Virus record (IMG/VR): IMGVR_UViG_3300036770_008730
Length of the DNA stretch: 64,000 bases
Origin: a virus
Taxonomy: Duplodnaviria; Caudoviricetes
Direction: 5' to 3' (one strand)
Shown here: piece by piece, positions 50,436-56,469 of the stretch
Position numbering within the stretch: position 1 is the stretch's first letter
Layout: each line of letters begins with the position of its first letter
Position numbers and translations under genes: made by a program
The notes under the pieces: generated by a model
Seen by the model: only the letters and a program-made list of their open reading frames with translations
Told to the model about the DNA's origin: nothing
The model's database searches: none

Positions 50436-50852
50436 ATGAAGTATATCAAATATTTTGAAGGTAAAAAAGATAAATTTCCTAATCTTAAAAAGATTGAAAA
50501 GGATGAATTTGTAATATATGTAGGTGGTGATGCTAAATCTAATGACTATCTCACCTTCAATATGGCTAATGATGATGATATTTGGTTACATGCTATGGGT
50601 CTTCCAGGAAGTCATGTTGTTATCAAAATTAAAAGTTCCCAGAATATACAAGAAAAAACTTTACCTACAGATGTAGTCTTAAGATTTGCAGCTGAGTTGG
50701 CTAAAAAACACAGTAAAGCGCCTAAAGATCAACCCTGTGATGTTAGATGGTGCCAAAGAAAGTTTGTCTATAAAACACCAAATATGAATACAGGTGAAGT
50801 TGGAATAGAAAAGCAAATAGAAATGGATCCTACCAAAAAGATTACAATTTAA
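50436..50852 (+). CDS. Stand-alone NFACT RNA-binding (NFACT-R/DUF814) domain protein
   Basis: VGGDAKSNDYLT...DIWLHAMGLPGSHVVI...AAELAKKHSK...VRWCQRKFVYK. Confidence 0.85.
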   Translation: MKYIKYFEGKKDKFPNLKKIEKDEFVIYVGGDAKSNDYLTFNMANDDDIWLHAMGLPGSHVVIKIKSSQNIQEKTLPTDVVLRFAAELAKKHSKAPKDQPCDVRWCQRKFVYKTPNMNTGEVGIEKQIEMDPTKKITI

Positions 50853-50871
50853 TTTAATATATACTATTATT

Positions 50872-52212
50872 ATGGCTGAAATTAAACCCATCTTCACAGA
50901 AGAATTACAAAAAATTCTAAAAGAATTAGAATCAGAAAATAACTATGTTGCTTTTGAGTTGATGTGGATGTCTGAACCAGATTCTAAATTTCATAACGGA
51001 TTAAGAATATCAAAAGTAGATGTTTCTAAGCAGGATTATTGCTTTGATGTTACTATTGATGGTAAAACACATCCAATGAAAATTGGAAAGTTTATAAGAT
51101 ACTTTTTAGCTAATATTATAAAGGATAATGAGGCTGTTGAATTTTCAAAACTTTATAATAATCTTAAAAAAGGTGAAAAGATACAATCCGGAACTCCTAT
51201 TACTATTGATAAGTTTTCTTACAATCCAAGAGATGTTAAAGCAACTTTTCTTTCTTTGGTTACAAAAACTTATCCTCATGGACATGAAGAAGAAGTATTA
51301 CAATTTTTACCGGGACTTAAAAAAGATCAATTTGGTAACTACTATAAAATAATAGGTAATATACAACCTCAAACTATGTTTACCTCGCATTTAGACACCG
51401 CAGATAGACAGCAAAAAGTTACAAAACTTTTTTCTATGGTTGAAGATGGTGAAGAATATATTTATACTGATGAAAGTACTATATTAGGCGCTGATGATAA
51501 GTCTGGTGTTGTGGTGATGTTATATATGATGACATATAATATACCAGGTCTTTATTATTTCTTTATTGGTGAAGAAAGAGGTGGAATCGGTTCTAATGCA
51601 TTGGCTTCTATTTTTGACCAAATTGATTATTTGAAGAATGTCAAAAGATGTATATCTTTTGATAGAAGAAACTATCACTCTGTTATCACAAGTCAATTAG
51701 GAAGAACTTGTTGTTCTAATGAGTTTGGAAATGCACTTTGTGATGAATATAATAGAAATGGATTAAGTTTATCTTTAGATAATACAGGTATTTACACAGA
51801 TTCTGCATCTTTTATGGATGATATTAGAGAATGTACTAATATATCTGTTGGTTATTTTAATGAACATACTGGAAAAGAATATCAAAATATAACTTACTTA
51901 AAGAATCTTTGTGAAGCTTCTGTTAAGGTTAATTGGAATTCTTTGCCTTCTGTTAGAAAGGCTGGATTAAATGAGGAAGTTATGAAAAAACACAGATTGC
52001 TTATCCAAGATATAAAAAAATCTGTTTTTGACTTAGAAACAAAAATAGTTGGTGAAGAAGGTAGAGTGTTTATCAGAGTTGATTTAGATGAGACTGACGT
52101 TGACGCTATTTCCAATGGCTTAAACATGGTTGATAGTATTCTTACTAAACATAAAATTAACAACAATGATGTAGTATTTACCAATACTTACATGAAAATA
52201 GAATTAAGATAA
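50872..52212 (+). CDS. M20/M28-family metallopeptidase with N-terminal phage module
   Basis: SHLDT, LGADDKSG, GEERG, SFDRR, YTDS, SVGYFNEHT metal ligands. Confidence 0.8.
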   Translation: MAEIKPIFTEELQKILKELESENNYVAFELMWMSEPDSKFHNGLRISKVDVSKQDYCFDVTIDGKTHPMKIGKFIRYFLANIIKDNEAVEFSKLYNNLKKGEKIQSGTPITIDKFSYNPRDVKATFLSLVTKTYPHGHEEEVLQFLPGLKKDQFGNYYKIIGNIQPQTMFTSHLDTADRQQKVTKLFSMVEDGEEYIYTDESTILGADDKSGVVVMLYMMTYNIPGLYYFFIGEERGGIGSNALASIFDQIDYLKNVKRCISFDRRNYHSVITSQLGRTCCSNEFGNALCDEYNRNGLSLSLDNTGIYTDSASFMDDIRECTNISVGYFNEHTGKEYQNITYLKNLCEASVKVNWNSLPSVRKAGLNEEVMKKHRLLIQDIKKSVFDLETKIVGEEGRVFIRVDLDETDVDAISNGLNMVDSILTKHKINNNDVVFTNTYMKIELR

Positions 52213-52213
52213 T

Positions 52214-52684
52214 ATGAATCTAAAAAAGTTTAATCAATTTGAAAAATACGAAAGTCCTTGGGATGAAGAAGATGAGTCATATTATAACGATGATCAATAT
52301 CTTTTTGGAAGACCATATCATTCAAATAAAGACAAAGGCAAATCTGAAGAAGAAGAGGAGGAAGATGAGTATGAAGATATAGATGATGATCAGAATGAGG
52401 ATATTCAACACTTGATGGATTTATTGAGAACCTATTTTGAAAACCAAGGTGTAGAAGTAGATATAGAAAATAAAGGATTAGATATCACAATATCAACTTA
52501 TCTTAATAAAGTAGAGAAATTAAAAAATATCATTAAAGTTTTTAACATAGTTAAAAAAGTTAAAAAAGATATTTTACCACAATATGAATCTGAGTTTGAA
52601 CTATGGGAAACAAAGGATAAAAGTCCTGTGCTTTATTTTAGTTTTTACTATGAAGGTGATTTCGATGATGAAAAACCATTCTAA
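52214..52684 (+). CDS. Acidic putative internal head protein
   Basis: MNLKKFNQFEKYE start; poly-E/D tract. Confidence 0.7.
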   Translation: MNLKKFNQFEKYESPWDEEDESYYNDDQYLFGRPYHSNKDKGKSEEEEEEDEYEDIDDDQNEDIQHLMDLLRTYFENQGVEVDIENKGLDITISTYLNKVEKLKNIIKVFNIVKKVKKDILPQYESEFELWETKDKSPVLYFSFYYEGDFDDEKPF

Positions 52685-52705
52685 ACTTTTCTTAATTTTT
52701 TAATA

Positions 52706-52714
52706 TTATATATA
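52706..52714 (+). promoter_or_regulatory. Late-type promoter TTATATATA of the tmRNA
   Basis: Ends 4 nt before tmRNA G1 at 52719. Confidence 0.65.
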
Positions 52715-52718
52715 CTTT

Positions 52719-53094
52719 GGGGAAGTGATAGAATAGATTCGCAGAGTGAGATCAATTATGCAGACATCGGTTGGTAAAATATCCGATTAATAAATTAGGT
52801 TACATCTGTCTTAAATGGCAAAACAAATGAAGTAGGAACCCGTGAAGATTTAGTAGCGGCTCTACAAAACAACCTGTTCTTGGTAGAAGAACTAGAGACA
52901 GCTTAACAAAGCATCTCTAAAAAATTCTCCAACTGAATCACAACAGTTCATAAAATAGTGAAACCTGAGTTGTTAGAATGGCGGGTAATTCAACTAACTA
53001 TTTTGTGAGTTTAGAAAAACTTTCTAAGTCTGTGAATGAATAGTTTATTTTAACTGAGGAAGACACCAGGGGCGGTTCCTGGTCTTCTCCACCA
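52719..53094 (+). ncRNA. ssrA: tmRNA
   Basis: 5' GGGGAAG pairs with CTTCTCC-A-CCA giving the G3.U70 Ala identity pair; T-arm ACCAGG-GGCGGTT-CCTGGT; PK1-like atcgg/ccgat; tag frame 52817-52906 with its stop in an H5-like hairpin; encoded CCA. Confidence 0.9.
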
Positions 53095-53098
53095 CATT

Positions 53099-53124
53099 AA
53101 AAGTCCACTTTGGTGGACTTTTTT
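53099..53124 (+). terminator. Terminator after the tmRNA
   Basis: aaaagtccac-tttg-gtggactttttt. Confidence 0.88.
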
Positions 53125-53145
53125 AGTTTAAAACATATAAATTAA

Positions 53146-53628
53146 ATGATAGATAAATTTGACGGTAAATACCGATTCTTAAGTAACTTTTATCCCTGTA
53201 AAATAGAACATCAGGGAATCACTTATCCAAGTGTGGAACATTATTATGTTGCAATGAAAGTCAATGATGAACAACTTATTAATGGTAAATATTACACTCC
53301 TGGTGATTTTAGAGAAATGATAAGTAGAGTAAAAGAAGCTGCCTTAGTTAAAAAAATTGGAAATAAAATTAAATTAAGATCTGACTGGGATAATAAAAAG
53401 TTAGATGTAATGAATTGGGCAATTAGAGAAAAATTCAAAGATGAGAATCTGAAGGAATTGTTACTTGGTACCGGTGATCAGGAACTTATTGAGGGAAATT
53501 TTTGGAAGGACTTTTTCTGGGGAGTTTGTAACGGTAGGGGCCAAAATCATTTAGGTAAAATCTTAATGATAGTTAGAGATGAGATAAGAGGAATCAAAAA
53601 GACTGGATTGGAAGAGTTTCTTAAATAG
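53146..53628 (+). CDS. NADAR (YbiA-like) protein
   Basis: FLSNFYP, SVEHYY.AMK, LRSDWD, ELIEGN.WKDFFWG, GQNHLGKILM. Confidence 0.92.
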   Translation: MIDKFDGKYRFLSNFYPCKIEHQGITYPSVEHYYVAMKVNDEQLINGKYYTPGDFREMISRVKEAALVKKIGNKIKLRSDWDNKKLDVMNWAIREKFKDENLKELLLGTGDQELIEGNFWKDFFWGVCNGRGQNHLGKILMIVRDEIRGIKKTGLEEFLK

Positions 53629-53677: not shown

Positions 53678-54622
53678 ATGGCGGCAATAAGTTATTTTGG
53701 AGGCAAAAGCTCAAATGTATTCATAGAATTCATTAATAAAAAAATACCTAAAACAGGAATAAAGACCTATTTAGAACCATTCTCTGGTTCAATGGGAACA
53801 TATATGGATGATGATAATCTTAAGTTTGATATTGTTATCTATAATGATAAAAATCGCCACCAGGTTAACCTATATAAGTGTTGTTCACAACCTGATAAGT
53901 TCTTACCTTATTTAGATAATCTAAAAAAGACATTATTATATACAACAGAAACAGATCCATTGAAAAAATGGGACTTCTACAAAAAAATTTATAAAGATTA
54001 TCAAAAGAATAATTTCCTAGATGATATGAATTTTGAAATTGGTGATTTTGAGAAAGCTTCAATTTATGCTTTTCTTATCACATCTGCTCATAATTCTGTT
54101 TATCCTCGTGGTGCGGGATTCAATGGGTATAAAAAAGATAAAGATAAACTTAAATTAGAAGTCCTTATTGATAAATTAAAGAAGAATAAATATACTTCAA
54201 AACTTCAGTCTATTACTGATTTCTTTAATGAAGATTTTGAATCTCTTATTAAGAGATATGATTCGGAAGATACTTACATATATTTAGATCCTCCGTATGC
54301 TAGATTTGATGATAAAAAGGGAGAAGATGATGCTAAAAGATTATTCTGGTATGGCGCTGATGCTGATGGTGTATTTGGACCAGCTTCTCATAGAAGACTT
54401 TTGGAGTTAATTAAAACAACAAAATCTCGTTGGTCACTTTCTTATTATTATTTTCCTTTATTGGAAGAATTATTACCGAAAGACAAATATATTTGGACTG
54501 AAAAAGAGGTATTTAGAAGTTCTGCTCAAGGTGGTAATAATGCTGATACCAAAAAAGAACAATCCAAAGGTGTTGAACTTTTAATTTTGAATTATGATCC
54601 ACAGACCGGTAAAAAATTATAA
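53678..54622 (+). CDS. dam: D12-class N6-adenine DNA methyltransferase
   Basis: YFGGKS, EPFSGS, YLDPPY, ELLILNY. Confidence 0.88.
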   Translation: MAAISYFGGKSSNVFIEFINKKIPKTGIKTYLEPFSGSMGTYMDDDNLKFDIVIYNDKNRHQVNLYKCCSQPDKFLPYLDNLKKTLLYTTETDPLKKWDFYKKIYKDYQKNNFLDDMNFEIGDFEKASIYAFLITSAHNSVYPRGAGFNGYKKDKDKLKLEVLIDKLKKNKYTSKLQSITDFFNEDFESLIKRYDSEDTYIYLDPPYARFDDKKGEDDAKRLFWYGADADGVFGPASHRRLLELIKTTKSRWSLSYYYFPLLEELLPKDKYIWTEKEVFRSSAQGGNNADTKKEQSKGVELLILNYDPQTGKKL

Positions 54623-55941: not shown

Positions 55942-56469
55942 ATGATAAACTCTAAGCCAAATAATTCAAATTACCATCAAGGTAATTATATACCAAAAAA
56001 TAAAGATAAAGTCATCAAATTAAATAATTATGGTGGTGTTCACTTCAGGTCTTCTTGGGAAAAGAAAATTATGACCTGGCTTGATTACAATACTTCTATC
56101 ACAAAATGGGGATCTGAATGTTTACGGATACCTTATCAAATGACACATTTTGATAATGGTGATACAAAAATTAAAGAACATTCTTATTATCCGGACTTTT
56201 ACTATGAGATGAGACTTCCGGATGGTAGTTTAAGACAGGTTGTAGTTGAGGTTAAGCCAATGAAAGAGTATAAAATGGTTCAGAGTCTAAATGAAGGTAG
56301 TTTACAAGTTCCTCAGAATGGTGCGAAAAAACTTAAGAACTTTGAATACGACTTAAAGATGGCTTATAAGAACAAGCAAAAATGGGAAACAATGATAAAC
56401 TGGTGTAATAAAAAGGGTTACGATTTTATCATCATAACAGAGGAACATCTTAAAAAGTTCAACTTATAA
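55942..56469 (+). CDS. Head completion nuclease (T4 gp4-like, TnsA-N fold)
   Basis: FRSSWEKKIMTWLD...KWGSE...IPY...YYPDFY...VEVKP. Confidence 0.87.
   Translation: MINSKPNNSNYHQGNYIPKNKDKVIKLNNYGGVHFRSSWEKKIMTWLDYNTSITKWGSECLRIPYQMTHFDNGDTKIKEHSYYPDFYYEMRLPDGSLRQVVVEVKPMKEYKMVQSLNEGSLQVPQNGAKKLKNFEYDLKMAYKNKQKWETMINWCNKKGYDFIIITEEHLKKFNL

Follow-up and report, generated by a model that had tools for sequence, protein, structure and literature searches.

The question raised by positions 52719-53094 of the virus record IMGVR_UViG_3300036770_008730 (Duplodnaviria; Caudoviricetes) is whether an RNA that the standard programs overlook can be a working transfer-messenger RNA (tmRNA, the product of ssrA) and, if so, what becomes of the proteins that would carry its long tag. 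A preliminary description of the window, by which is meant the whole 64,000-nucleotide stretch analysed, had proposed from the letters alone that a phage tmRNA with a 29-residue acidic tag lies at this place. The presence of a tmRNA at 52719-53094 is confirmed, and all of the sequence features then described are found there on the plus strand. The locus is very probably a functional one-piece tmRNA gene of a Mahaphage-type megaphage, a reading that takes in the predicted steps of charging, ribosome rescue and tagging. The identification as a phage tmRNA is carried by an acceptor stem with the G3:U70 pair, the long helix P2, the pseudoknot PK1, a tag open reading frame (ORF), a helix H5 around its stop, the pseudoknot PK2 and a T arm, together with covariation among homologues. 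It occupies the one ORF-free gap of any size in the region (52685-53145), the upstream ORF ending at 52684 and the downstream one starting at 53146.

Structure and distribution of the RNA

A hand-built model of 68 pairs in 12 helices was tested on an alignment of 42 sequences (A3); searching the alignment automatically for stems along its diagonals gave too much noise with an RNA so rich in G-U and AT. The modelled positions are paired in 93.0% of cases, and sliding the 3' partners by 1-3 columns lowers this figure to 36-51%. Compensatory changes, altering both sides of a pair, occur at 36 of the 68 pairs, and none of 500 shuffles reaches the observed values. The first three sequences alone already show the acceptor stem and the T stem covarying. 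The alanine identity pair G3:U70 is present, with GU at pair 3 in 41 of the 42 rows, the sole exception being a misaligned one. The PK3 and PK4 regions contain covarying helices for which several pairings are possible. The parts of the RNA outside the tag region, and the terminator that follows it, are as follows.

52719..53094, plus strand: whole tmRNA gene, 376 nt including the encoded CCA (from homologues and structure counts)
52719..52725, plus strand: 5' strand of the acceptor stem, GGGGAAG, pairing with 53084-53090; 97% paired, compensatory at pairs 5 and 6
52726..52737, plus strand: D-loop analogue, UGAUAGAAUAGA, in which AG takes the place of the canonical GG
52738..52765, plus strand: 5' strand of the long helix P2 (P2a-d), pairing with 53028-53061; helices 2-4, 90-100% paired, 14 pairs changed on both sides
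52766..52803, plus strand: pseudoknot PK1; AUCGG/CCGAU invariant and GUAA/UUAC covarying, three of four pairs changed on both sides
52932..52961, plus strand: pseudoknot PK2, ACUG/CAGU and UCAC/GUGA; helices 7 and 8, 87% and 95% paired, with compensatory changes
52966..53024, plus strand: 3' body, with the PK3-region helix (52966-52997) and a long hairpin (53005-53024); helices 9-11, 77-92% paired, helices 10 and 11 compensatory
53028..53061, plus strand: 3' strand of the long helix P2 (helices 2-4)
53065..53083, plus strand: T arm, 6-bp stem ACCAGG/CCUGGU and 7-nt loop GGCGGUU (53071-53077); 97.6% paired, five of six pairs changed on both sides
53084..53094, plus strand: 3' strand of the acceptor stem, CUUCUCC (53084-53090), then the discriminator A and the encoded CCA (ACCA, 53091-53094); read from the sequence
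53099..53122, plus strand: intrinsic terminator directly 3' of the gene, a stem of 10 pairs and then a T run; one site against 0.3 expected

A sensitive blastn search of GenBank phages found homologues of the tmRNA in two records only, LR756502.1 (642 kb) and LR745206.1 (635 kb), at 73-75% identity, and in both of these the tmRNA is unannotated. The major capsid protein of the window is 76-78% identical to proteins of the same two phages; the next-closest capsids belong to genomes of 636 kb and 735 kb (52%), and the Prevotella Lak phages are distant (29%). These capsid identities place the window in the Mahaphage group of Al-Shayeb et al. Genomes of more than 634 kb have predicted Bacteroidetes hosts, and the tmRNAs there were called with ARAGORN (PMC7162821). 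The wider family was retrieved with a gapped PK1 motif, ATCGG-N11-14-CCGATTAATAAATTA, used in place of an earlier bare 16-mer that had returned at least 80 loci, mostly chance matches. The invariant PK1 motif led to 66 IMG/VR contigs of up to 483 kb, and a profile search to about 70 loci in huge-phage contigs, from which 46 unique full-length sequences were obtained. Homologues with compensatory changes at about 70 loci put the signal far above chance. Among 185,579 bacterial and archaeal species, each represented by one genome, the PK1 motif occurs in five places, of which three are chance matches and two are small contigs of metagenome-assembled genomes (MAGs) that carry family members; one of these two is the same contig as an IMG/VR record. 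No family member was found in any bacterial chromosome of this set and the family is, as far as these genomes indicate, phage-borne. The chance matches, L133 (on a Bacteroidales chromosome), L132 and L135, lie inside coding sequence and are not tmRNAs.

The tag reading frame and the variant elbow

In Escherichia coli, A86 serves as a ruler four bases ahead of the resume codon, and U85 and A86 form the basis of a rule for setting the frame (PMC2481249). The preliminary description had pointed to a U and an A at the equivalent positions, -5 and -4, and both are present here in a resume context of UUAAAU followed by GGC. The features of the tag region are listed below.

52812..52816, plus strand: frame-setting UAAAU, with U at -5 (52812) and A at -4 (52813); UAAAY followed by GGN in nearly all members
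52817..52906, plus strand: tag ORF, an open frame of 29 sense codons (52817-52903) and TAA (52904-52906); peptide (A)GKTNEVGTREDLVAALQNNLFLVEELETA
52832..52865, plus strand: covarying hairpin inside the tag ORF (GUAGG..CCGU / GCGG.CUCUAC); 92-95% paired, all four pairs of the inner helix compensatory
52876..52892, plus strand: second covarying hairpin inside the tag ORF (GUUCU / AGAAC); 95.5% paired, four of five pairs changed on both sides
52893..52919, plus strand: H5 hairpin around the stop, UAGAGA-c-a-GCUU/aaca/AAGC-a-UCUCUA, folded at -15.5 kcal/mol (z -4.6), with the stop in the loop of a two-tier hairpin

None of the 34 distinct nucleotide versions of the region interrupts this frame, and together they give 30 distinct peptides of 25-29 residues; the first codon across the family is GGC, GGA or GAC. 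Stops occur in the other two frames in 23 of 23 sequences. Insertions and deletions within the ORF follow five patterns, all of 3 or 6 nt, whereas indels of one or two bases are common elsewhere in the RNA, and differences at codon positions 1, 2 and 3 number 1454, 1582 and 2206. In L008 and L069 the second half of the tag is unrelated to that of the other members (…ATLKAIGVNTPELV) and is still open, with only synonymous differences between the two. The enclosure of the stop by H5, also anticipated in the preliminary description, holds for 32 of 32 distinct versions (mean z -2.6). If the RNA acts in trans-translation, peptides such as EDLVAALQNNLFLVEELETA would be expected at protein C-termini. 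The tags of L094 and L120 end in TAG rather than TAA; recoding of TAG, which some megaphages practise, would in these two phages let translation run on past the end of the tag.

The two hairpins inside the ORF are jointly 94% paired, compared with 28-47% when slid, and nine of their 14 pairs show compensatory changes; the tag template is thus under the influence of RNA folding in addition to coding. Some residue changes are tied to one another by this pairing, R, S or N at tag position 9 going with A or F at position 14, and F, I or L at position 21 with E or D at position 25.

A canonical T loop (T-Psi-C-R-A-N-Y) on a 5-bp T stem is not what is found in the variant-arm members of the family. 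The loop GGCGGUU on a 6-bp stem to which the preliminary description had drawn attention is present at 53065-53083, with its stem covarying, and nearly every member has a loop of the consensus NGCRRUN (GGCAGUA, GGCGGUA, GGCGGUU, UGCAAUA, AGCAGUA), with a few versions of 6 or 8 nt, on a stem that is usually of 6 bp. All members with the variant T loop have the D-loop AG(A/C/U)(A/U)U. The PK1 motif and the P2 layout are also common to six distant relatives from IMG/VR (L015, L046, L026/L072, L075, L119 and L120) in which the T loop is UUCGANN or AUCGNNN and the D-loop has GG. The T stem is of 5 bp in five of these six relatives with canonical or intermediate loops, and of 6 bp with AUCGAA in L120. 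This comparison shows that the T-loop change is coupled to a change of GG to AG in the D-loop. In tRNA numbering, G18:Psi55 would be replaced by A18:G55 and G19:C56 would be kept. The relatives with canonical or intermediate loops are the most divergent by profile score, so the NGCRRUN arm looks derived within the phages. The departure of the T loop is treated here as a variant trait and not as a ground for excluding the RNA from the tmRNAs, since the tmRNAs of alphaproteobacteria deviate from the canonical loop as well. Among the variant-loop members only the window encodes its CCA, the others ending in ACAA or ACUA; the divergent relative L119 also ends in ACCA.

Metatranscriptome contigs from two studies enter Illumina adapter sequence at 53069 and at 53075, in the T stem and loop. 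These junctions may reflect a stop of reverse transcription at a structured or modified elbow, or may be plain fragment ends.

The tags of the relatives with canonical or intermediate loops are also long (19-29 residues) and start G/A-N/K-T/V-N-E/Q-V or similarly. Four such phage tmRNAs from IMG/VR, which combine the PK1 motif with a canonical T arm, are L015:4236-4609(-), L046:12989-13353(+), L026:3842-4167(-) and L075:4296-4682(+), with the tags VVSEKIDVLDALDSTESVQDGELVLAV, VETEKVNVLDALISTEVKEEALLLAV, GKTKNVPVIEMITEMRAAA and ANTNEVGSVADVLTVVNETAEAVSV in that order, which suggests that a long tag is usual throughout this wider group of phage tmRNAs. A blastn search of GenBank phages with L015 and L075 gave no match.

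A resemblance to another tmRNA type deserves mention. The T loop of alphaproteobacterial two-piece tmRNAs is GGCRGUA, which is nearly the same as loops described here (GGCGGUU, GGCAGUA, GGCGGUA). However, the present RNA is one-piece and unpermuted, is found in phages with predicted Bacteroidota hosts and has little affinity to the permuted model RF04321 (16.6 bits only). A literature search for the motif GGCRGUA found nothing.

Proposed mechanism and partner genes

On the reading of the locus as a functional tmRNA gene, the alanyl-tRNA synthetase (AlaRS) of the host would charge the RNA with alanine and an SmpB of the phage would deliver it to stalled ribosomes. Translation would then resume at GGC, four bases after the conserved A, and an extension of 30 residues, made up of the alanine and the 29 encoded residues, would be added to the nascent chain. 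The non-polar C-terminus of this extension would direct the product to a Clp-type protease, either that of the host or one formed from a phage ClpC-like protein and ClpP. The gain to the phage would be the recycling of ribosomes over a lengthy infection in which the infecting genome is very large and AT-rich.

Partner genes were surveyed in five near-complete relatives (W01, W02 and G001-G003, of which W01 and W02 are GenBank records) and not in the genome of the window itself. SmpB (PF01668) is encoded by all five, with E-values of 1e-50 to 1e-54, and is full length with a GKKxWDKR C-terminal tail; one phage SmpB gene lies at L092:1489-1923. A single-protein scan for phage SmpB in viral contigs found six loci, none of them on contigs with the tmRNA, and it is on whole records that the co-occurrence is shown. 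No other tmRNA scores above the Rfam cut-off in W01 or W02. An enzyme of the CCA-adding family is likewise present in five of five, which fits the fact that most members end in ACAA or ACUA. Of AlaRS there is essentially nothing beyond a fragment in one relative, and it would therefore be the host enzyme that charges the tmRNA.

Turning to proteolysis, ClpP is found in four of the five relatives (two or three copies in each) and ClpS in all five; Lon is found in none. All five also encode an Hsp100 protein of about 710 residues that lacks the N domain, has a short UVR-type middle motif and carries a GVGF loop at the ClpP-docking position. One such protein, of about 707 residues and with two AAA+ rings, is encoded at L149:1045-3165 (LR756502.1 440544-442664), and there are equivalents in four other megaphage records. 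This gene content suggests a phage-encoded Clp protease in the megaphages, and a phage-encoded reader of the tag is conceivable.

The C-terminus of the tag bears on which protease this might be. The preliminary description had called attention to an acidic 29-residue tag without ALAA, and for the window this is correct, the tag having 29 codons, a net charge of about -4 and the end LETA, otherwise seen only in L103. As a basis for supposing that tagged proteins escape degradation it is not supported by the family. The 30 distinct family tags start G-K/N-T/V-N-E/Q-V, like ordinary tags, and are net acidic, but the last residue is always A or V and never acidic, the one before it being T, V, A, I or E. 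L or P usually lies four from the end, common ends being LATV, LMTV, PATV, LATA, LAVA, DLVVA, DLVIA and DLVA. None of the 30 has the C-terminal (A)LAA-COOH degron of ssrA, there being no LAA or ALAA end among them. The family ends, of the form L-x-(T/V/A)-(A/V) and in some cases LVA or VVA, are degron-like and would belong to the usual non-polar C-terminal type. The further suggestion that the tag is sent to another protease is plausible, with the ClpC-like unfoldase and its VGF loop, ClpP and ClpS as candidates in the relatives. A literature search for phage-encoded tag peptides found nothing.

Occurrence in environmental RNA was also considered. The DNA of the window is complete in three subsurface metagenome runs, from which it probably derives, and partial in freshwater, lake, lagoon and sediment runs. 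In four freshwater and lake metatranscriptome runs (four studies) the RNA contigs fall only within 52730-53076, and pieces identical to the window cover 52768-52983, 52775-52949 and 52921-53021. In the same four runs no RNA contig covers the flanks at 52400-52705 or 53080-53400, which does not in itself prove the flanks silent. This pattern is consistent with an abundant, discrete and structured RNA.

Several genes lie close to the tmRNA. A stand-alone NFACT-R_1 domain (PF05670; 138 aa, E 3.5e-14) is encoded at 50436-50852 (+), directly after the gene for a Gp23-like capsid protein and about 1.9 kb upstream of the tmRNA. An NFACT-R domain is present in all five near-complete relatives, and in LR756502.1 and LR745206.1 it is at the same distance upstream of the tmRNA. 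NFACT proteins act in the other bacterial ribosome-rescue route (RqcH), so that a functional link between NFACT-R and the tmRNA is possible. Between the two genes lie 50872-52212 (+), encoding a protein of 446 aa with weak similarity to PepT/M28 peptidases (NCBIfam, E 1e-10 over 70 residues), and 52214-52684 (+), encoding a 156-aa protein that matches no family. The gene immediately beyond the tmRNA terminator, 53146-53628 (+), codes for a protein with a NADAR domain (PF08719, E 8e-26). After it come genes for a D12-class adenine methyltransferase (53678-54622) and for a protein with a TnsA-like endonuclease domain (55942-56469).

Detectors, alternatives and known systems

Several points weigh against the reading of this locus as a functional tmRNA gene and must be set beside the evidence given above. 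ARAGORN finds no tmRNA in the whole 64-kb window. Rfam 15, with models that include the 2025 RF00023 and tmRNA_permuted, gives nothing in the window at the gathering score and nothing useful by E-value, and when 380 bases are searched alone the scores are 9.6 bits for RF00023 and 16.6 bits for the merged permuted model RF04321 (tmRNA_permuted), against a cut-off of 47 for each. The T loop lacks the UUCRA core, so that it is an assumption that the elbow forms and that SmpB, EF-Tu and the ribosome recognise it. Aminoacylation, tagging and degradation are inferred steps. SmpB is absent from the window, and the SmpB and Clp genes are known from the relatives only. From assembled RNA contigs neither transcription nor the ends, strand or level of an RNA can be proved, and libraries of this kind may contain DNA. 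Finally, the coding signal in the tag is modest, the ratio of non-synonymous to synonymous polymorphism (pN/pS) being 0.61 in the tag frame against 0.71 and 0.74 in the others. As this ratio alone separates the frames weakly, the frame call rests on the open frame and the in-frame indels. One reason for the mild contrast is that the ORF also carries the two covarying hairpins, which account for part of the conservation of the tag sequence; part of the conserved core EVGT-x-EDLVAALQNN may reflect RNA rather than peptide constraints.

The failure of the detectors can be followed across the family. ARAGORN finds no tmRNA at 11 related or candidate loci, among them the homologues in LR756502.1 and LR745206.1. 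It does find four of the canonical or intermediate relatives (L015, L046, L026/L072 and L119), missing L075 and L120, but none of the variant-arm members, and the altered T arm is thus the likely reason for the misses. Recognition by such programs, which this RNA lacks, is an operational criterion and not a biological one. The preliminary description had put forward ARAGORN or Infernal with RF00023 as the check on its finding; both fail on this RNA, and reliance on them would have led to a correct finding being discarded.

Four other accounts of the RNA have to be weighed. It is most improbable that the tag is read one base later, from GCA, to give a short peptide that in the window would be AKQMK followed by a stop. 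On this account the run of three As upstream would shift the frame ruler, and an extra A beside A86 in E. coli does cause frame slippage (PMC2481249). The +1 frame also has a conserved TAG after six codons, since GUAG is invariant, and stops alone cannot decide between the frames. However, the first codon in the +1 frame is GCA, GAA or ACA depending on the member and the +1 peptide is unconserved, whereas the 0 frame starts with GGC, GGA or GAC and is open for 25-29 codons in every member. A six-codon tag would leave the in-frame indels 60-80 nt downstream unexplained. The host-type gene of Bacteroidales has UAAUU followed by GGC with a canonical tag, and in the canonical-T-loop relative L026 the start given by ARAGORN is identical to that adopted here (UUAAAU, then GGC AAA AC), with a tag ending RAAA. 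The long frame preferred in the preliminary description is therefore retained. It is also highly improbable that the RNA is a decoy or inhibitor, itself untranslated, that titrates host SmpB or blocks host trans-translation, a role proposed for the RNA of mycobacteriophage DS6A, which has the tRNA-like domain only. A phage tmRNA reduced to this domain and the inhibition of tmRNA by such molecules have been described (PMC4131195), and the altered T arm could in principle make the RNA non-productive. Against this, the full mRNA-like domain is kept here, with its frame-setting sequence, open frame, in-frame indels, stop in H5 and the pseudoknots PK1 and PK2, and a decoy would not need the SmpB that these phages supply for themselves.

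The remaining two accounts concern the fate of the tagged chain. The preliminary description proposed that ribosomes are rescued while the acidic ...EELETA end escapes ClpXP and the chains are spared. ClpX needs a C-terminal LAA-COOH and the ssrA-DD variant is stable, and the ETA end of the window, its charge and the want of any ALAA end in the family are all in keeping with such a view. The ETA end is nonetheless a minority form among tags that mostly end in non-polar A or V, the relatives encode their own Clp unfoldase and ClpP, and the retention of frame and length through five in-frame indels would be unexpected if the tag needed no reader; rescue without degradation is accordingly a weak proposal, and we consider it unlikely. 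Somewhat less doubtful, although still tentative, is the idea of a private channel for trans-translation and proteolysis. The remodelled elbow would then be matched to the phage SmpB or shielded from host factors, and the long, conserved tag would serve as a degron or adaptor-binding signal peculiar to the phage, which the ClpC-like protein without an N domain would read together with ClpP, in place of the host ClpXP. NFACT-R could join this toolkit.

With the locus taken as a functional one-piece tmRNA gene, its place among known systems can be stated. The RNA shares with the standard one-piece tmRNA (RF00023) the acceptor stem with G3:U70, the D-loop analogue, P2, PK1, a U and an A four to five bases before GGC, the stop in H5, PK2 and further downstream helices, the T arm and the partner SmpB. 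It differs in having NGCRRUN on 6 bp rather than UUCGANU on 5 bp, AG rather than GG in the D-loop, and two covarying hairpins inside the ORF. With RF00023 the tmRNA of a Bacteroidales MAG (L150:1501-1899), whose T arm is canonical, reaches 139.9 bits, compared with 9.6 for the window. The tag of this MAG tmRNA, GENNFALAA, is of 9 aa, in contrast to 25-29 aa in the family, and this one example agrees with the statement of the preliminary description that Bacteroidota tags are of about 9-10 aa. The most frequent tag length among tmRNAs is 10 aa (PMC11915505). Phage tmRNAs are already known from huge phages (Al-Shayeb 2020, PMC7162821), Bacillus phage G, Bxz1-type mycobacteriophages (PMC4131195) and the marine Mar_Mega_1 (PMC9723777), and the ssrA genes of huge phages are accompanied by smpB and other translation genes (PMC7162821), as here in the relatives. 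These known phage tmRNAs were detected by way of ARAGORN or Rfam, both of which the window family escapes. A phage tmRNA with SmpB is therefore not new as such.

ARAGORN and Rfam hits form the seed of the tmRNA database (PMC11915505). Both tools, and databases seeded by them, overlook this whole lineage of phage tmRNAs, even where it occurs in two of the largest phage genomes published, so that surveys of phage translation genes count too few tmRNAs and a covariance model made for this lineage is needed. The coupled change of T loop and D-loop amounts to a natural experiment on which features of the elbow trans-translation can dispense with. A tag under the double constraint of a peptide frame and RNA hairpins, together with phage SmpB and Clp components, provides a concrete system in which to ask what a phage gains from a ribosome rescue of its own, and whether phage tags address a protease other than the one addressed by the tag of the host.

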